A model generated the notes under the pieces. That model did no database searches and was not told the DNA's origin. It was given only the letters and a program-made list of their open reading frames with translations. Position numbers and translations under genes: made by a program. Shown here in pieces: positions 3,459 through 23,029 of a stretch of 42,879 nucleotides of DNA (the stretch's first letter is position 1; each line of letters begins with the position of its first letter). Source of the stretch: a virus; IMG/VR virus record IMGVR_UViG_3300045988_132779, positions 1 through 42,879 of that record. One strand, written 5' to 3'.

Positions 3459-3565
3459 CGACAAAAAGCGCCTACCCAAGCGAATGGGTAGACGCCTAAC
3501 AGAACGTGACTGCATGGTTAGGTGCAATAGCACCCGTCTGTATTGTAGCACAAGGAGGTGTAAAT

Positions 3566-4693
3566 GTGGCCAGTATTAGTAAGCGTGGCAAAAAATGGCA
3601 ATATCGTGTCTCTTACAAGGATAATGATGGAACACGCAAGTATGTCAACAAGGGTGGCTTCCCCTCAAAAAAGGCTGCTGATATAGCGGCAATCGAAGTC
3701 GAACGTCAGCATAATCGCGGTGCAAATTTGGATCTTAACAAGATAACGTTAATCGACTACTGGGACAAATGGATTGAGCTGTACAAATCTGGTAAGCATT
3801 CTCGTATCACCGAAGCCCGGTATAAAACAATTCGTAAACAGTTATTAGCCTACTGGGGCGAAAGCCGTGAACTAAAATCAATTTCAAAATCAGACTGGCA
3901 GGCATTTATCAATGAGTTTGGCAAAAAAAGGGCTAAAGATACAGTCAGCAAATTGAATGGCTATGTTCGCTCAATGGCTGATTCTGCCGTAGATGACCAA
4001 ATAATATATACTAACTTCACTCATAACGTTGTCCTCACTGGTAATGAGGGCCAAGCAGGAATCATCAAATATTTGCAAGTAAAGGATTTGCGCAAGCTCG
4101 TCAATTACTGCCTAGAATTTGCAGACTACGAGCATATTGCTTACTACATCATCGCAACCGGGGCACTGACCGGAGCTAGGTATTCTGAAGTTCTTGGGCT
4201 CACGTGGGATCATGTTGATCTTAAAAAGCGCGTTGTACACATTACCAGAACGTGGGATCACAGATATGGGAGCGGCTTTGCTGCTACTAAGAACAAATCA
4301 AGTGTACGTGACATCGACATCACGAGAGAACTTGCAGACTTGCTTTTACGTCTCAAGAAAGAACAGCAAGAGGTCTACCTTGCTCAGGGATATCGTGATA
4401 GCAAACAACTATTATTTCGCAGCATACGGCATAACATGCTATCAAGCACGGCAATTAATAAGGATCTAAGGACGATTCAGAAGACTCTCGACATTTCCCC
4501 CGCGATTACTTTCCATGGGCTTAGACACACTCACGTTTCCTATTTGATTGCCAATCACGTTGACATTAACTATATTTCAAAAAGACTTGGGCATGCCAAT
4601 ACAATGATCACTCAAAAAGTCTACGCTCATCTTCTTGAAGATCAAAGAAAAGAGCAGGTATCCCAGACGCTACAAGCACTTTCTAGACTTTAG
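3566..4693 (+). CDS. int: Tyrosine recombinase / phage integrase
   Basis: Catalytic motifs TGARYSEVLGLTW (Arg), HGLRHTH (H-x-x-R) and LGHANTMITQKVYAHL (Tyr). GTG start at 3566 with AAGGAGG 7 nt upstream; the longer track ORF has no RBS. Confidence 0.92.
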   Translation: MASISKRGKKWQYRVSYKDNDGTRKYVNKGGFPSKKAADIAAIEVERQHNRGANLDLNKITLIDYWDKWIELYKSGKHSRITEARYKTIRKQLLAYWGESRELKSISKSDWQAFINEFGKKRAKDTVSKLNGYVRSMADSAVDDQIIYTNFTHNVVLTGNEGQAGIIKYLQVKDLRKLVNYCLEFADYEHIAYYIIATGALTGARYSEVLGLTWDHVDLKKRVVHITRTWDHRYGSGFAATKNKSSVRDIDITRELADLLLRLKKEQQEVYLAQGYRDSKQLLFRSIRHNMLSSTAINKDLRTIQKTLDISPAITFHGLRHTHVSYLIANHVDINYISKRLGHANTMITQKVYAHLLEDQRKEQVSQTLQALSRL

Positions 4694-4890
4694 CTTGTGC
4701 ACATTTTGTGCACCGGAGGAAAAAAACAACCGAAAATAAAAGGAAACAAAAATCCCGAAATGCCTTTATACAAGCATTTCGGGAAGCTATGGAAAGCAAC
4801 TAGAGACAATAAAACGGAGAGTAAGTGCGAAAATAAACGTATATACAATAGTATTAAACCACATTTTGTGCATATTTTGTGCACAAAAAT
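4694..4890. other. Probable attP region with integrase arm-type repeats
   Basis: Convergent intergenic region next to int. (A)TTTTGTGCA(C) occurs as direct repeats at 4695..4702, 4703..4713, 4863..4872 and 4874..4884, flanking ~150 bp. The core position is not determinable without the host attB. Confidence 0.55.
4754..4783 (-). terminator. Rho-independent terminator (minus orientation)
   Basis: Perfect 10-bp stem CCCGAAATGC/GCATTTCGGG with a 10-nt loop. On the minus strand it is followed by AUUUUUGUUUCCUUUU. Confidence 0.65.
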
Positions 4891-4920
4891 AAGCCTCCCG
4901 CCATTGCTGGTAGGAGGCTT
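4882..4920 (-). terminator. Rho-independent terminator of the protease operon
   Basis: 8-bp stem AAGCCTCC/GGAGGCTT. On the minus strand it is followed by AUUUUUGUG. Confidence 0.65.
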
Positions 4921-4938
4921 ACTAATAACACATATAGC

Positions 4939-5085
4939 CTAATATTGAACGATACGGACAACACATTCTTGTGCCGAACCTTGGTTTGTGGGTTCAGCGT
5001 TAGGTTGATTATATTGATTTAACTGTTCATTTGTTTTATTTACTTTATCGAAAAGGGCGTTGATTTGTTCTATTGTGTATGTCAT
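4939..5085 (-). CDS. Unannotated 48-aa Q/N-rich protein translationally coupled to the SDH protease gene
   Basis: MTYTIEQINALFDKVNKTNEQLNQYNQPNAEPTNQGSAQECVVRIVQY. Its ATG overlaps the protease stop (ATGA). GGAGGA lies 4 nt upstream. Below the 60-aa track cutoff. Confidence 0.55.
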   Translation of the reverse strand: MTYTIEQINALFDKVNKTNEQLNQYNQPNAEPTNQGSAQECVVRIVQY

Positions 5086-5990
5086 GGGTTCCTCCTACTT
5101 TGGTCACTGACAATATACGAAGATGATTTGCTTTCAATTAATTTTGAAACATTTGTCTGTTGCAAAGTAATCATAATGGAGTGGTGGAGACTCAAAACTG
5201 AATTTTGCAAGTTCTGATCGTCTTCGAGAGCATTAACTTTTAGACCGATTTCACGAGCCAAATCAATATTGAAGTGTCGAGCATGAGCCTTTGAACGAGT
5301 GTGTTCATTGAGCCTTTTCACTATAGCCTTTACCTTTTCATCTGAATGTGGGTCATCGGCGAACATAACAGACGAAAGCCAGCTTTCTATTAGCTCTCCC
5401 GATAATTGAACGGCATCTTGAGCGAACTTGACGTATGCGGCCGGATATTTTCCTAAAAGTAACGACCAATATTGAAGGTTGTTGGCGTTTTCTTGTAGAT
5501 CATGGTACGCTTCATCAAATTCAGAAATAATATTATAGGCAGGTAACCCCCCTATCTGAGGATCAACCGGTCCCAGGCTTGAATGCTTCCCCATCCAAAT
5601 CTTTTTAGAAGCACACGAAATCATAGTGCCTGCAGACATTGCCATGTGAGGCACGATAACCTCAATATTATCATAAAACATACTTCTAAGATATGAAACG
5701 ATTGATTCTGCAGCATTAGGATCTCCACCTGGTGTATGCAAAACTAAAGAAAGTCCCTTTTGGCGATCTAATCCATTGATGGAACTCATAAACCCTTCCA
5801 TGTCGCTATCATTGATATCAATCTGATTTTTTCGTCCTTGTTGCCAACCAGAGTAATAACAGATTATGGTTCTATTAGTTTGTTTTTCAAGGTCTTCGAG
5901 ATATTTATGCCTAAGAGAGTCTAATCGAGACGGATAAGACTTAAACTCATCGAAAATCGATGACCAACTACCACCGCCTTGATGCTGCAT
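5082..5990 (-). CDS. SDH-family (ClpP/SppA-fold) serine protease, 302 aa
   Basis: Motifs LVLHTPGGDPNAAESI, VPHMAMSAGTMI and LGPVDPQIGG are typical of the serine dehydrogenase proteinase family (PF01972-like). ATG at 5990 with GGGGGGA 7 nt upstream; the 35-aa upstream extension has no RBS. Confidence 0.75.
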   Translation of the reverse strand: MQHQGGGSWSSIFDEFKSYPSRLDSLRHKYLEDLEKQTNRTIICYYSGWQQGRKNQIDINDSDMEGFMSSINGLDRQKGLSLVLHTPGGDPNAAESIVSYLRSMFYDNIEVIVPHMAMSAGTMISCASKKIWMGKHSSLGPVDPQIGGLPAYNIISEFDEAYHDLQENANNLQYWSLLLGKYPAAYVKFAQDAVQLSGELIESWLSSVMFADDPHSDEKVKAIVKRLNEHTRSKAHARHFNIDLAREIGLKVNALEDDQNLQNSVLSLHHSIMITLQQTNVSKLIESKSSSYIVSDQSRRNP

Positions 5991-6180
5991 TGCTTCATCC
6001 CCCCATGTTAATCTATAAGCTTCATGTGATGTGTACGTTTTCCAATCAAATTTGTCATGCACCCATCGCCTACATATTACCAGTGGCAATAACAATATTC
6101 AATTAAAACTGATTAAAACAAGTTAAAACATATTTAAAAAGTAAAAAATTGCAGTGCATTCTTGACAATTAATTTACAAC

Positions 6181-6234
6181 AAAAAGCCCTCCACTTCACA
6201 CACCCGCATTAGCGAGCAGAGGGCCTTTTTGTTA
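6181..6234 (-). terminator. Compound hairpin terminator between yafQ and the protease operon (U-tracts on both strands)
   Basis: Outer stem GCCCTC/GAGGGC, flanked by A5 on one side and T5 on the other. The inner CUCGC/GCGGG stem pairs only on the minus-strand RNA. Confidence 0.5.
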
Positions 6235-6279
6235 CCTGATGTACAGGCTTTTTTGTGAGCGAAACATCACAGCAAATTG

Positions 6280-6564
6280 CTAAATACCAAGCAAGTTGTG
6301 ATGCCTTCCCACTGCAACGACAGTTAAAATCAATTCCTCACCGTCTATGCTGTAGATGACCAGCAAATTTGGACGCAAATGAAATTCTCTGTGATTAATC
6401 CAATTGCCGCTTAAGCTGTGATCGTGATAGCGCTTGGGCAGTTCTTTCCCAACACATAAAGAGTCTAGACACTTTTCCAAGCAATCCTTGTCTTCGCTGC
6501 TTAAATTTATCTTTTTGAGCTGCTTTTTGGCCGAATGCGTGTACTTCAACTTTAGCAAACTCAC
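6280..6564 (-). CDS. yafQ: Type II toxin, YafQ/RelE-family mRNA interferase
   Basis: LPKRYHDHSLSGNWINHREFHLRPNLLVIYSIDGEELILTVVAVGRHHNL matches the YafQ-family pattern (DH.L.G.w...RE.H..pd.LLiY). 4-nt overlap with the upstream antitoxin gene. Confidence 0.8.
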   Translation of the reverse strand: MSLLKLKYTHSAKKQLKKINLSSEDKDCLEKCLDSLCVGKELPKRYHDHSLSGNWINHREFHLRPNLLVIYSIDGEELILTVVAVGRHHNLLGI

Positions 6565-6812
6565 TTGAGCATATCCTCAAGCATATCGTGTGCATTGTCG
6601 AAGGACTTAGATACTCGTCCGTGTTTTTCGTCTTCGATCCCAGACTCTAGATCACCGGTAGGCGTGAATGGAAACTTTCCTTGTTTGTTAAATTCGACCA
6701 AAAACATGTTGATTGCAGTGGAGAGCGTGACTCCCATACTTTCCGCTATGTGTTTGGCTTGTCTCTTTGTGTCCGTGTTTGTCCGTACGTTAATAGTCGC
6801 TCCTTTATCCAT
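6561..6812 (-). CDS. dinJ: Type II antitoxin, RelB/DinJ family
   Basis: INVRTNTDTKRQAKHIAESMGVTLSTAINMFLVEFNKQGKFPF is a DinJ-like ribbon-helix-helix N-terminus. ATG at 6812 with GAGGTG 6 nt upstream. Confidence 0.8.
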   Translation of the reverse strand: MDKGATINVRTNTDTKRQAKHIAESMGVTLSTAINMFLVEFNKQGKFPFTPTGDLESGIEDEKHGRVSKSFDNAHDMLEDMLK

Positions 6813-6865
6813 TGATATCACCTCACGTTGTATTGTAACACGTTATACACACAACGCAACGCTTT

Positions 6866-8050
6866 TTACTTGATATATAAACTTTCACCAGGGTAGATCA
6901 GGCTGTAAATTGACTTGCCGTTGTTGGCCGCTAACGTGTACATACTGATGCCATACCTGCTGGCAATGCTCCAGAAGCTGTCACCAGAGAGGACCGTATA
7001 ATACGTGCGGCTTACCGGTGAGGTGTATCCAGACGAACGCGAGCCATAGCTCTCCCCACCATTCACCCCCAAGGCAACATAATGATACTGGCCGGAGTAG
7101 CTGAGATAACGTGCCCAAACATATGTGCCACGGATATACACGTGATCATAAATCACACTTTCACCGGGTGCATAGCTGCCAACTGCTGTGTATCCTGTAC
7201 CAGCACCAGTGCGGATGTTAACAGTCGTGGAAGGCTTGAACACACCCGCTTGCGCATAGTCGGTATCACTGGCTGCATTCGATTTCGCTGGTTGACTTGG
7301 TGCCGGTGTTACAGGCACCGACGGAGTTGCTGGCTGCTTCGAGTATCCATTATCGGTCACACCAAGCAGATCAATGTTACCATCGAGGCCTTGCGACAGC
7401 CCAAATGCGCTCGTGTACTGCCAAATAGCTACCCCATCCATACTCGGAAAATAACCGTAGTCTGGTTTGGTAGTTGGTAGATAATCACGGTAAGCAGCAA
7501 TCCAAAGGCTGTTAGGAAATTCTTTCAGAATACGCTGATAATCGACATGTGCCAACGTATATGGCTTGTAACTGTAATACATGGGCGTGTAGCCTTCTGA
7601 ACGAATGCGCCGCATGCCAGCTAAAATTGCATCCGTATTAGCTGCCATATTGCCAGAAGCACCATCTTCGTAGTCCAAAGCAACGATGCTTCCCTTTGGT
7701 GTCTGCGCTTTGATACGAGGCATATAACGGTCAAGTGCTTCTAATCCCAACTGGCTACTTCCACCAACGCCATACCAGATGTAGCTATGCACACGTTTTC
7801 CTGCCGCCTTGGCACTAGCAATTTGGCTATCATACGTCCACTGATCGATGTACGTACCACCGTAAGTTCCGCCAATCTGAGCTATGACGAACTTGTCTTG
7901 ATCTGTTCCATATCGTCCACTTGCTCCCTGATACTTCGCCCAATCAGGTCCCTGATCACCCTTTGCTGCATTGACATGCGATGGCAAGGCAAAAGAAATA
8001 GCCGCCAAGAAGGCGACTACCAAGGTGATGAGTTTAGTTTTAAATTTCAT
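6866..8050 (-). CDS. Endolysin: signal peptide + GH25 muramidase + SH3-like region + C-terminal LysM
   Basis: The N-terminus MKFKTKLITLVVAFLAAISFALPSHVNAAKG is Sec-signal-like. GH25-like core (DWAKYQG...DYEDG). C-terminal LysM YTVLSGDSFWSIASRYGISMYTLAANNG. AAGGAGG lies 5 nt before the ATG at 8050. Confidence 0.88.
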   Translation of the reverse strand: MKFKTKLITLVVAFLAAISFALPSHVNAAKGDQGPDWAKYQGASGRYGTDQDKFVIAQIGGTYGGTYIDQWTYDSQIASAKAAGKRVHSYIWYGVGGSSQLGLEALDRYMPRIKAQTPKGSIVALDYEDGASGNMAANTDAILAGMRRIRSEGYTPMYYSYKPYTLAHVDYQRILKEFPNSLWIAAYRDYLPTTKPDYGYFPSMDGVAIWQYTSAFGLSQGLDGNIDLLGVTDNGYSKQPATPSVPVTPAPSQPAKSNAASDTDYAQAGVFKPSTTVNIRTGAGTGYTAVGSYAPGESVIYDHVYIRGTYVWARYLSYSGQYHYVALGVNGGESYGSRSSGYTSPVSRTYYTVLSGDSFWSIASRYGISMYTLAANNGKSIYSLIYPGESLYIK

Positions 8051-8060
8051 GGTGCCCTCC

Positions 8061-8474
8061 TTATTGCTGTGGAGCAAAAGATGCCGGAGCTGACTCCGCC
8101 GGTGCTGCAGAAGACGTCTCTGGAACCACTTCACTAGCAGCAGTTACCTGGTCAGCCTCTTTATCCGCTTGCAGCGCCTTAATCTGGTCCTCTAGCGCCT
8201 TGATCTTAGCTGCCTTGGTGGTAATGAGTGCCGGGTAAGCTAACGCCTGCTGGCTATCACTGACGCCCTCTGTGGTTGGGTCAACGGCTACCCCAACGAT
8301 GGTCAACAGCGCAAATACTGCATTGACCACTGCAGTGAGTTCTTTACCCAAACTAGCAAAGTCCCAGTTGTAACCGAAGACTGCCGCCACCGTTTGAATC
8401 ACCAACAAAGAAGCTGGCACAATGGCCAGCCAGAATTTGACGCTTAATACTCGTACTTTCCAATTAATCTTCAT
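8061..8474 (-). CDS. Holin (phi LC3 / Phage_holin_1-like)
   Basis: MKINWKVRVLSVKFWLAIVPASLLVIQTVAAVFG plus VAVDPTTEGVSDSQQALAY match this holin family. Lies immediately upstream of the lysin. Confidence 0.8.
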   Translation of the reverse strand: MKINWKVRVLSVKFWLAIVPASLLVIQTVAAVFGYNWDFASLGKELTAVVNAVFALLTIVGVAVDPTTEGVSDSQQALAYPALITTKAAKIKALEDQIKALQADKEADQVTAASEVVPETSSAAPAESAPASFAPQQ

Positions 8475-8488
8475 ACTGAACATTCCTT

Positions 8489-8854
8489 TCAGTTTTTAAT
8501 CCGAAGTTGCAAAACTTTGTTATATAGCGCTTCGCCCGTTCCGTTACCGCCCAGTGCTTTGTAGCTGCGGAAAAGGTAATTAAGATCGTCCAAGTCGTCT
8601 GTGCTGATATACCCCACCTCGATATGATGGTTACACAGCATGTAAACCTCATGATGAAGCAAACCGACAAGGCCTGAATCAATTGCCTTTCCATGCTTTC
8701 GATGCATGCGCCATTGGCTTGCAAACCAACCAAACAAAGCTCCACCACCCAACTCCACAAACATATCTATCCAACTCTTGAAATCCACATCTTTATACTT
8801 CCTTCCATAAAAATAGCCGCTAGCTTTTGCTGGCGACTTGCTTAACAAGTTCAT
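8489..8854 (-). CDS. Lysis-module membrane protein (one TM, GGGALFGWFASQW), function unknown
   Basis: Lies between XkdX and the holin. Weak RBS, and the start is uncertain (alternative ATG at MFVELGGG). Confidence 0.5.
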   Translation of the reverse strand: MNLLSKSPAKASGYFYGRKYKDVDFKSWIDMFVELGGGALFGWFASQWRMHRKHGKAIDSGLVGLLHHEVYMLCNHHIEVGYISTDDLDDLNYLFRSYKALGGNGTGEALYNKVLQLRIKN

Positions 8855-21167: not shown

Positions 21168-22343
21168 TTACTTACCAAGACCGGAACCAGGTACATCTGT
21201 ATTGGTCACAAAATATCCGGCATTGCTATCGGCCTTTTGGACGCCAAACCGAAATGCGGCGCCAAGATATTTACCGTAGATCTTGCTGTCCTCCCATGCC
21301 AGAGTGACCTGCTGACGATCCGTAAACAGGACACCACGCTTCAGATCACCAACGAATGCTTTTTGATCACCGGCAAGAGAGCCGAGAAGAGTATCACCAA
21401 CAACATATACGGGGACACCAAGAATCGTGCCCTTTGCAGTTCCGTCAGTAATAGAATCGGACGCATCATGAAGCAAGTAACGCCCATTCTTATCTTTCAA
21501 CGTATCAAGCGTATTGAACAAGGACTGAGTAACCACAAGCGCACGGCTATATGCTGGATCAAGATCAACGTTAAGGATGTGCTTAAGGCTATCTACAAGA
21601 GTATCAGTGGTTGTTTTCTTGGCCGTGAACGACTGCAATACAGGCGCAATCATCGCGTTGTAGGTATTGACGGACTTTTCGTTGATAGACTGACTAACAA
21701 GTGCGGTCAAGTCCACTGCTGAATCAGCAATAGCTTCCTCAGACAGAGGGATTGCGCCACGGTATGTGCTAACAGACCAATCCACATGTTCAAATTCAGG
21801 TTCAGCAAGTGCTGGATTCTCAGCCAGCTCTGCCACACTGGAAAAACGATCGGTTGCCCGTTTCAAAATAGGGTACGTTCCCTTGGGAGTGGTAACTGGG
21901 GTCTTGGTAACCAAGGTAGACAGATCCACAACCGAATTTACTTCTGCGGTAGGGTCATAAATAATTTCTTCCGGAATCAGCACGCCTGCTTCGGTCGAAG
22001 TGACGTGACTGGCTGCGTTTTCAATCACCTTGCCATGGCTATGGATGTAGTCATTGATAGCTTTCTTCGTGGCGTCAATTGGCTTCTTCTTTAAGTCGGT
22101 ACCAGTCGGATTAGCCTTGTCTTTTGGCTTGTCAGAGTTAGAATCATCCTTCTTTTCAGCTTCAAGGGCTTTAATCTGATCGTTAATAGCGTCCCGACGC
22201 GCCTTGGCAGCGGTCAAGTCATCCTTGATCTTTTGAAAATCATCCACAGATGCGTTTTCATCTTGTAATTTTGCGTTGAGCTGAGCGTTTAGGTCGGCAC
22301 ACTTGGCGCTAACTTCATTAAAAAGCGTTTGTAATTTGTCCAT
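21168..22343 (-). CDS. Major capsid protein, HK97 fold, with an N-terminal coiled-coil delta/scaffold domain
   Basis: 391 aa, directly after the prohead protease. The N-terminal ~100 aa are coiled-coil and K/D-rich. Confidence 0.88.
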   Translation of the reverse strand: MDKLQTLFNEVSAKCADLNAQLNAKLQDENASVDDFQKIKDDLTAAKARRDAINDQIKALEAEKKDDSNSDKPKDKANPTGTDLKKKPIDATKKAINDYIHSHGKVIENAASHVTSTEAGVLIPEEIIYDPTAEVNSVVDLSTLVTKTPVTTPKGTYPILKRATDRFSSVAELAENPALAEPEFEHVDWSVSTYRGAIPLSEEAIADSAVDLTALVSQSINEKSVNTYNAMIAPVLQSFTAKKTTTDTLVDSLKHILNVDLDPAYSRALVVTQSLFNTLDTLKDKNGRYLLHDASDSITDGTAKGTILGVPVYVVGDTLLGSLAGDQKAFVGDLKRGVLFTDRQQVTLAWEDSKIYGKYLGAAFRFGVQKADSNAGYFVTNTDVPGSGLGK

Positions 22344-23029
22344 TATTGGACCTCCTTTTTTTCATAAAAAATAGCCAGCTTCTTGTTTAGCAGATTGTTC
22401 TGCTTTGGAAGTTGACTACGTAGCTTGTTGTTTTCATCTTTCAGGTTCTTAATTCGTTGAACTGCTTGATGTGGAATAATCGGACCCACAGCGTTTACAA
22501 TTGGCGTATCGAAGTCTAGCTTTTCATCTGCCAATCCTAGTTCAACAGCTTGATCAGCGTCTAGCCATGTTTCTTTATCCATTAATGCTAAAAAGTCATC
22601 GGCAGGTTTCCCAGTCTTTGCAGAGTACAGGCTTGCAATTGCACTATCGGTAGTTTGCAGCATTCCAGAAGCGGCATCCATCTCGTGAGAGTTTCCACTA
22701 GCATCACTTGATGCGCGATGAATCATCATCTTAGCACCGGGCGCCATCTGAACCTTATTGGCACCCATAGCAACAATTGTTGCAGCAGAGTACGCATTTG
22801 ATACGATCTTTGCCGTTACATTGCCTTTATAATCACGAAGTGCGTTGCATACTTCTGTAGCTGGGTCAACTTCCCCGCCATCTGACGCAATTTCTAATAC
22901 AACATCAGACCCGTCATTTGGAAGTGATTGAACAATATCGGATGGAGATGTTGCAGTCATTCCGAACCAATCACGATAAATAGGGGCAGAATCATCGCTT
23001 GTAATGTAGCCCTTAACAGGAATAATCAC
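22343..23029 (-). CDS. ClpP-family prohead (head maturation) protease
   Basis: VVLEIASDGGEVDPATEV...SNAYSAATIVAMGANKVQMAPGAKMMIH is ClpP/S14-like. Lies between the portal and capsid genes. Confidence 0.85.
   Translation of the reverse strand: MIIPVKGYITSDDSAPIYRDWFGMTATSPSDIVQSLPNDGSDVVLEIASDGGEVDPATEVCNALRDYKGNVTAKIVSNAYSAATIVAMGANKVQMAPGAKMMIHRASSDASGNSHEMDAASGMLQTTDSAIASLYSAKTGKPADDFLALMDKETWLDADQAVELGLADEKLDFDTPIVNAVGPIIPHQAVQRIKNLKDENNKLRSQLPKQNNLLNKKLAIFYEKKEVQ

Follow-up and report, generated by a model that had tools for sequence, protein, structure and literature searches.

What is an SDH-type serine protease, joined to a very small open reading frame (ORF), doing between the lysin and integrase genes of a temperate phage? 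The question is raised by IMG/VR virus record IMGVR_UViG_3300045988_132779, analysed here as one stretch of 42,879 nucleotides (the window). The initial annotation of this stretch had presented the protease and a hidden ORF of 48 amino acids (aa) as a self-contained pair, with abortive infection or exclusion among its candidate roles. Our comparisons indicate that the 48-aa ORF is a real, conserved and fast-evolving partner gene, and that the pair is a horizontally acquired two-gene operon, carried as mobile cargo by an A2/Lrm1-like Lacticaseibacillus temperate phage. The pair most likely belongs, on the similarities set out below, to the 'HP + SDH_sah' anti-phage system (DefenseFinder FS_HP_SDH_sah). 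It consists of the following elements.

5998..6004, minus strand: Shine-Dalgarno (SD) sequence GGGGGGA of the protease gene, 7 nt 5' of ATG 5990.
5082..5990, minus strand: gene of an SDH-type (ClpP/SppA-fold) serine protease, 302 aa, family PF01972.
5091..5096, minus strand: SD sequence AGGAGG of the partner gene, within the final protease codons, 5 nt before the ATG.
4939..5085, minus strand: partner gene, 48 aa, MTYTIEQINALFDKVNKTNEQLNQYNQPNAEPTNQGSAQECVVRIVQY, recognised by its ATGA overlap and by a match to the downstream-type profile described below.

The protease stop codon (TGA, 5084-5082) overlaps the partner start codon (ATG, 5085-5083), and the AGGAGG at 5096-5091 lies inside the last protease codons, just as had first been read. 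Could the small ORF nevertheless be there by chance, with the protease functional alone? Short ORFs are so abundant in this AT-rich region, where a 3.5-kb stretch at the locus is overlapped by 46 ORFs of 25 aa or more, that a lone 48-codon ORF carries no weight, and a direct search with the 48-aa protein returned one homologue cluster only, 96% identical. By that search alone the ORF would look unconserved, and synteny-guided profiles were therefore needed. We took 160 loci encoding protease relatives, half of them genomic and half from viral contigs (80 each), and searched the profiles against their 46,638 six-frame segments.

Nearly all loci with a protease at least ~47% identical have an ORF of 45-71 aa just downstream of it. 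A downstream-type profile, built from 24 of these ORFs, gave 58 matches at E < 1e-3, every one directly downstream of an SDH gene (58/58; 56 on the same strand, 2 convergent), and the window partner matches it at E 4.8e-7. At more distant loci (41-48% identity), a similar small ORF lies directly upstream of the protease. These come from Proteobacteria, Chloroflexota, Actinomycetota, Planctomycetota and one Woesearchaeote, and the matching upstream-type profile gave 28 matches, 28/28 being directly upstream of an SDH gene. With both profiles together, 86/86 matches abut an SDH gene; these loci include 72 pairs that differ from one another, 45 of the downstream type and 27 of the upstream type. 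The partner is thus downstream in Firmicutes-type loci and upstream elsewhere. Iteration of the downstream-type profile never reached the upstream-type partners; a second seed set and hhalign joined the two (probability 92.5%, E 5e-7), over an N-terminal motif that reads 'eI..LY.klgI' in one profile and 'eI..vF..LgL' in the other, with the common form "EIxxLYxxLG". Most remaining loci have an abutting small ORF of like style, too diverged for either profile, a count made without a control. Distances between the two genes are short in both arrangements, with a median of 21 nt and six ATGA overlaps for the downstream type, and a median of -8 nt with 19 of 27 pairs overlapping for the upstream type.

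The ratio of non-synonymous to synonymous substitution rates (dN/dS) of the small ORF was ~0.1-0.5 in 12 of 13 related pairs, dS not being computable in the thirteenth. Partners had a dN 2-12 times as high as their neighbouring proteases; the exception was the near-identical pair formed by the window and L. paracasei prophage L001. Related genes of 45-50 aa adjoin streptococcal-type proteases that are 62-68% identical, and independent gene callers annotate an equivalent small gene in several assemblies. In protein P0148 the two are naturally fused, an SDH-type protease carrying a 66-residue tail with partner motifs. The invariable adjacency, the dN/dS below 1, the canonical SD and ATG and the independent gene calls together argue for a genuine gene, coupled to the protease, inherited and varying along with it, and conserved beside its homologues, as the initial annotation had supposed. 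A chance ORF is by now scarcely credible, and this reading is in practice refuted by the comparative data.

Several other arrangements were seen among these loci. In L022, L024 and L174-L176, a partner-type small gene directly follows the protease gene but is on the opposite strand, a convergent arrangement that would exclude translational coupling there; in L174-L176 this gene encodes 79 aa, was taken from the assembly's gene caller, and is partner-type by position. Unannotated partner-type small ORFs are present directly upstream of annotated SDH proteases in public records of E. coli and of Gordonia phage BeeGee. Those of E. coli RefSeq chromosomes (L162, at ~8622-8822, and the equivalent in L164) are 66 aa long and end ..HQLYTY, the BeeGee one (L167:2816-2992) is 58 aa long and ends ..VRYSTSATR, and for the E. 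coli variant in L163 the record has a hypothetical protein of 69 aa. Locus L183 (5001-7995) encodes three tandem SDH-type protease paralogues of 372, 303 and 316 aa. The first has a fused partner-like tail of 66 residues. Since its conserved Asp is replaced by Ala (GPIAPQ) and several of the conserved histidines are missing, it may be a pseudo-protease. Finally, in the Oscillibacter-type prophages L179-L181, an extra called gene of 44 aa (MGTNGNFSLTEKETYGYNVDTKKIHWNEVQLGATFEVSQLLLWE, 6861-6995) ends 5 nt before the protease start; it is devoid of the partner motif, and these prophages also have a downstream partner.

The partner proteins have a recognisable anatomy. That of the window has the N-terminal motif EQINALFDKV, a variable linker rich in Gln and Asn, and the C-terminal motif VVRIVQY. 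Among Lactobacillales partners, the N-terminus follows M-x-Y-[ST]-[IML]-E-Q-I-x-x-L-[FY], and ~25 variable polar residues then lead to V-[RQK]-[IV]-[IV]-x-Y at or near the C-terminus, the window form of this pattern being MTYTIEQINALFDKV...VVRIVQY. In the other clades the N-terminal motif is retained, and the ends are related strand-like motifs with many Ser, Thr and Asn residues (..IRIESTT, ..RLSNSS, ..WSNS, ..YSSGT...YSY). In a search with 66 partners, no Pfam, NCBIfam or PADLOC model matched, apart from one spurious PADLOC match, and a single small PHROG covers three E. coli-type partners, with no other PHROG match. The partners form a previously unmodelled small-protein family, found with this protease subfamily throughout the Bacteria and in some Archaea. 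Annotators sometimes miss its genes, as in the RefSeq E. coli prophages and BeeGee, and this comparative result, in which the "hypothetical protein" of the system becomes a definable family with conserved termini and fast evolution, is more useful than the lone locus.

We also noted that otherwise unalignable partners (window 4939-4959, L002, L150, L154, L160, L162, L163) end in hydrophobic-x-Tyr-COOH, as in ..RIVQY, ..RVITY, ..VMYSY, ..SLYSY, ..QLYSY and ..QLYTY. The C-terminal Tyr is a possible docking motif.

Conserved ends around a hypervariable centre of ~25 residues, an Asn content that is 12% for downstream-type partners and 5% for the proteases, and a dedicated protease encoded alongside are also what one might expect of a precursor peptide (a signal, or a ribosomally synthesised and post-translationally modified peptide), from which the protease would release the variable middle or C-terminal part. 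Nevertheless, no signal peptide was predicted in the partner, the variable region is of low complexity rather than a defined core, no membrane segment or secretion signal was predicted in the protease, and no conserved exporter, modifying-enzyme or receptor gene was found near the pair in the sampled contexts. We regard a precursor peptide as very improbable. Its secreted, arbitrium-like version fails for want of a signal peptide.

Turning to the protease, the 302-aa ORF (5990..5082, minus strand) has the motifs LHTPGGDP, VPHMAMSAGTM and LGPVDPQ, and matches Pfam PF01972 (SDH_protease) over residues 57-254 (E 3.5e-22, 79.2 bits against a cut-off of 31.3), the family that had been expected of it; it also matches phrog_11747 (E 8e-93). 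As the longest ORF, the frame extends to TTG 6095 (337 aa). We took ATG 5990 as the start, because in an alignment of 30 sequences all 29 homologues start at its position, and because it has its own SD. Invariant in this alignment are HTPGG, S119 (in MSAG), D143 (in VDPQ), H236, H239, H269 and H270, and the putative catalytic triad is S119, D143 and a His. The C-terminus (..QSRRNP) is ~4 residues longer than in homologues 75-79% identical. With no predicted membrane segment or secretion signal, the protein is predicted to be cytoplasmic. The subfamily is present in Bacteria and Archaea, and comprises ~290 clusters at 50% identity with E <= 1e-30 (1,301 with E <= 1e-10).

An AlphaFold2 (AF2) model of the protease, with a mean per-residue confidence (pLDDT) of 86.9 and a predicted template-modelling score (pTM) of 0.85, shows a core of ClpP/crotonase type joined to a large helical domain at the C-terminus. 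Foldseek and profile searches found no solved structure of a close relative. The best Foldseek matches in the PDB were weak: B. subtilis SppA (4kwb and 3rst, E ~1e-3) and ClpP, with TM-scores of 0.3-0.4 by query length and 0.4-0.6 by target length. The nearest predicted viral structures are giant-virus 'serine dehydrogenase proteinases', and at the profile level the protease matches ClpP 1y7o (E 9e-5) and the NfeD structures 2deo and 3bpp (E 2e-3). It resembles SppA, ClpP and NfeD (1510-N) in its fold and in where the nucleophile lies; unlike them, it has an extra helical C-terminal domain (residues ~150-280) and is devoid of a membrane anchor. SppA and NfeD use a Ser/Lys dyad, whereas the window protease has a putative Ser/Asp/His arrangement, and no AAA+ partner is encoded near it.

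ClpP-type prohead proteases of phages are likewise distant relatives in fold, and PHROG head-maturation families match the window protease weakly. Such proteases, however, are expected in the head module, beside portal, scaffold or capsid genes, and to be conserved in related phages, whereas the SDH gene is at the lysin/attP end. A prohead-protease role was rejected on three counts: the gene lies outside the head module, sister phages are without it, and the window has a separate ClpP-type protease, on the minus strand at 22343..23029 (PF00574 CLP_protease, E 1.9e-23). The latter had been pointed out at the outset as making the SDH protease dispensable for morphogenesis, and our results agree.

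How did the pair come to lie there? The flanks of the locus are 90-100% identical to Lacticaseibacillus temperate phages of the A2/Lrm1/Lc-Nu/R18.1 type, which identifies the slot as the lysin-attP-int junction of a siphophage genome. The pair is placed between lysin and integrase, among these features.

8134..6866, minus strand: GH25/SH3_5/LysM lysin, by domain match.
6821..6561, minus strand: RelB antitoxin (PF04221, E 1.3e-9).
6564..6280, minus strand: YafQ/RelE-type (YafQ/ParE-type) toxin (PF15738, E 2.3e-24).
4919..6251, minus strand: mobile SDH module, made of the upstream terminator, the promoter region and the two genes, delimited by blastn breakpoints against R18.1, L001 and L083.
6177..6234, minus strand: predicted intrinsic terminator 5' of the module (RNA fold -28.4 kcal/mol, z -5.1, then a U-tract).
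Between this hairpin and the 302-aa ORF, minus strand: AT-rich spacer of 190 nt.
6074..6102, minus strand: putative sigma-70-type promoter, TTGAAT-17 nt-TAATAT, read by eye.
4880..4923, minus strand: hairpin terminator with U-tract, directly 3' of the partner gene (the fold, 4923-4888, has -22.7 kcal/mol, z -4.7).
4784-4753, minus strand: second downstream hairpin with U-tract (-21.3 kcal/mol, z -5.7).
3506..4693, plus strand: tyrosine integrase, by domain match.

Phage R18.1 is collinear with the window as far as 6872, at the lysin end, and again from 4918, with 13 unrelated bases between. By this junction, window 4919-6871 (1,953 bp) was inserted after the lysin stop codon and ahead of the backbone terminator. 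In the L. paracasei prophages L001 and L083, the lysin end is joined to window 6251 and the sequences are then collinear down to 4891, a unit of ~1.36 kb; in them, a 250-aa ORF and host FeoA/PEPCK-type genes come directly after the called genes of the protease and the 48-aa protein. The slot thus holds two independent cargo units, the protease module (~4919-6251) and RelB/YafQ (~6252-6871), since R18.1 is without both, and L001 and L083 have the SDH module only. The RelB and YafQ-type toxin genes, which overlap by 4 nt, form a separate insertion of ~0.6 kb between the lysin stop and the SDH module, absent from R18.1, L001 and L083. A 23-nt direct repeat that seemed to flank this toxin-antitoxin (TA) insertion, on overlapping blast segments, was rejected, because all that is left of it is a short microhomology, AAAAAGC.

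Within window 4700-6300, the related Lacticaseibacillus phage records match the attP-side 4700-4921 only and are without the pair, and a protein search of a collection of 50,697 phage records found the protease in only seven unrelated phages. The pair has a GC content of 39.3%, within the lowest 3% of same-size sliding windows, where the window as a whole has 43.95%; for the SDH module (4919-6251) it is 38.4%. Mobile cargo at the lysin/attP end and a base composition richer in AT than that of the phage had both been proposed beforehand, and both hold.

When folded as RNA and compared with shuffled sequence, all three hairpins that had been said to bracket the pair were found, with z from -4.7 to -5.7; for the upstream one (6234-6177), 0 of 200 shuffles folded as well. 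The two downstream hairpins are phage backbone elements, common to cassette-free relatives, since R18.1 matches the window again from 4918, so that this part of the bracketing does not belong to the module. In addition, the stretch 4921-4881 matches a phage A2 region whose annotated features include an int terminator. The upstream terminator, on the other hand, moves along with the SDH module, as seen in L001 and L083. It is predicted to stop transcription arriving from the lysin/TA side, and with one strong terminator before it and another after it, the pair is in all appearance its own transcription unit. The putative promoter (6102-6074) scores 8 of 12 positions, under the 9/12 that our scanner requires, and is absent from the scanner's list.

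The genomic contexts of homologous pairs were then compared; statements about them rest on about a dozen sampled loci out of the 160.

Window phage and L. paracasei prophages: pair after the lysin.
Oscillibacter-type gut prophages (L179-L181): after the lysin and convergent with it, at three different integration sites.
E. coli lambdoid prophages: next to the lysis genes, either on the side towards Q or on the side towards terminase.
Mu-like Shewanella phage MuM16-1: between the late regulator and the lysis genes.
Porphyromonas phages: beside HicAB.
Gordonia phage BeeGee: after the minor tail protein gene.
S. uberis island resembling a phage-inducible chromosomal island (PICI), with D5_N primase and DUF1492: at the host-proximal end, the protease homologue being 68% identical.
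Element resembling an integrative and conjugative element (ICE): beside an Abi_2 gene.
S. suis: beside MazE/PemK.
Metagenome scaffolds L174-L176: next to an N6_N4 methyltransferase.

In E. coli, 51 of 5,426 complete genomes match. The sampled positions are typical sites of lysogen-expressed accessory or defence cargo; with prophage moron slots, a PICI-like island, and TA, Abi_2 and methyltransferase genes as neighbours, they fit the defence or exclusion role put forward initially. Loci L171-L173 (protein P0013) bear the source label Campylobacter jejuni and have antigen I/II-family adhesin, Muc_B2 and Abi_2 genes as neighbours, which one typically meets in elements of streptococci or lactobacilli; the label probably reflects a contaminated or mis-assigned assembly.

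Some of these positions also suit a different role, in which the protease would serve the lytic cycle or counter-defence, for instance by breaking down a defence or repressor protein of the host, and the small protein would be the adaptor for target choice. The pairs of E. coli lambdoid prophages and of Shewanella MuM16-1 sit in late-transcribed regions next to lysis genes, the BeeGee pair follows a minor tail protein gene, and the fast evolution of the partner would suit an arms-race adaptor. In the window and in L001, however, a strong terminator parts the pair from the late operon, and in L179-L181 convergence with the lysin means that late transcription cannot drive the pair. Furthermore, the pair is also present in the PICI-like island and the ICE-like element, as well as at chromosomal loci without annotated phage genes nearby, and close sister phages manage without it. 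We therefore hold a lytic or counter-defence function to be unlikely.

The neighbours raise another possibility, that of a TA-like addiction module, with the protease as toxin and the small protein as a labile antitoxin, which would stabilise the prophage or island and have no direct anti-phage role. The pair resembles type II TA and Abi pairs in having overlapping genes, a small, polar, fast-evolving partner (encoded upstream of the larger enzyme gene in most lineages), a location on mobile elements, and TA or Abi genes close by; RelB/YafQ adjoins it here, and HicAB and MazEF do elsewhere. Yet RelB/YafQ is a classical TA pair, in contrast to the SDH pair: Pfam, NCBIfam and PADLOC models revealed no DNA-binding or known antitoxin domain in the partner, and a protease of self-compartmentalising type is not a known toxin class. 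Moreover, a PF01972-based system is already listed as anti-phage, and TA and abortive-infection functions can coexist. Addiction as the sole function seems to us quite unlikely.

DefenseFinder lists a two-gene system, FS_HP_SDH_sah, whose gene model is cited, and reported on oral phage contigs, in PMC13532340. The earlier statement that no system made of an SDH protease and a mini-protein had been characterised is thus probably mistaken, and the pair is less novel than was then held. The assignment of the window pair to this system was made because the domain, the two-gene architecture, the vehicle and the taxon range all fit. The window encodes a PF01972 protein, as the system demands if SDH_sah, which we take to be the former Pfam short name of PF01972, denotes that family. 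Next to it lies a co-oriented 48-aa gene in the HP position, and the two are carried by a phage-related mobile element, as a cargo insertion in a temperate phage, with homologues in prophages and a PICI-like island. Like the listed system, then, the pair combines a PF01972 protease and a small hypothetical protein, as two genes on phage-related mobile elements, and window-type homologues are found in the PICI-like S. uberis island, in Porphyromonas phages and in streptococcal elements. Two features differ. The small gene of the window is downstream and overlapping, whereas the name of the system and the non-Firmicutes loci put it upstream, and the host and vehicle are a Lacticaseibacillus siphophage with the pair in its lysin-attP slot.

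The FS_ systems are reportedly the PICI-encoded immune systems described by Fillol-Salom et al. in Cell in 2022, and are said to have been shown there to protect against phages. We know of no published mechanism for FS_HP_SDH_sah; our literature searches on SDH-type/PF01972 proteases, including PICI and anti-phage contexts, returned nothing on mechanism, and a paper on Porphyromonas phages leaves the SDH gene unmentioned. What the window would contribute, most likely, is a new host and phage group, and a reversed gene order, for a defence system that is known but mechanistically unexplored. If the assignment is right, a phage of a lactic acid bacterium joins the carriers of the HP + SDH_sah system, which is of relevance to Lacticaseibacillus strains in dairy and probiotic use, whose sensitivity to phages is shaped by prophage-encoded exclusion.

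How could such a pair act? The explanation that we favour, with confidence a little better than even, is that of a self-contained acquired operon of the HP + SDH_sah class, in which a partner-gated protease would abort infection. The operon would be expressed in the lysogen from its own weak promoter (TTGAAT-17-TAATAT, 6102-6074). The partner would dock on the protease by its conserved N-terminal helix, and its conserved C-terminal strand (..VVRIVQY) would be presented at the active site, acting there as pseudo-substrate or gatekeeper and keeping the protease quiet. A superinfecting phage would then remove, titrate or out-compete the fast-evolving partner, and the freed protease would cut phage or host targets, so that the infection is aborted. 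The proposed role of the partner as docking inhibitor or pseudo-substrate has a parallel in SppA crystals, where C-termini are seated in the active sites; SppA 4kwb is the top fold match of the protease. The high dN of the partner would fit a role in specificity or sensing. S119, the N-terminal helix of the partner and its C-terminal ..VRIVQY strand are candidate handles on immunity by a ClpP-fold protease.

Several results weigh against this explanation or the assignment on which it builds. The protease scores 93.3 bits with the NCBIfam equivalog NF047768 (Clp_like_SDH), against a cut-off of 250, which makes it a distinct branch of the SDH family. The late-transcribed location of the E. coli and Shewanella pairs fits a lytic-cycle role too. 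In the AF2 model of the P0148 fusion, the partner part stays at pLDDT 36-63, with a weak helix of low confidence over its EDLLDFLSEHG motif. The assignment to FS_HP_SDH_sah rests on domain and architecture, the partner being likened to 'HP' by size and position. Lastly, the PADLOC check that had been suggested for a known defence model gave no relevant match to protease or partner: among eight diverse SDH homologues, including that of the window, no protease or SDH model of PADLOC-DB 2.0.0 was matched, the sole match of the window protease being a spurious one to JetB (E 0.011), and the window partner had none.

A broader proposition goes beyond the window. Protease and partner might everywhere be one ancient, widespread protease-plus-gatekeeper immune module, the gene order having flipped between lineages, with the partner acting as both inhibitor and phage sensor. 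In this reading, the partner is made of the 'EIxxLYxxLG' docking helix, a hypervariable linker and the C-terminal strand. We put this forward tentatively, as a rather doubtful extension of the abortive-infection operon favoured above; if true, it would amount to a protease-based abortive-infection logic that is undescribed mechanistically for any defence system.

A last observation concerns the non-coding region next to the integrase gene. It contains three copies of the sequence TTGTGCAC(A/T)ATTTTGTGCAC, at 4695-4713, 4855-4873 and 4866-4884, one of which abuts the integrase stop codon. From their position, these repeats could be integrase arm or attP sites.

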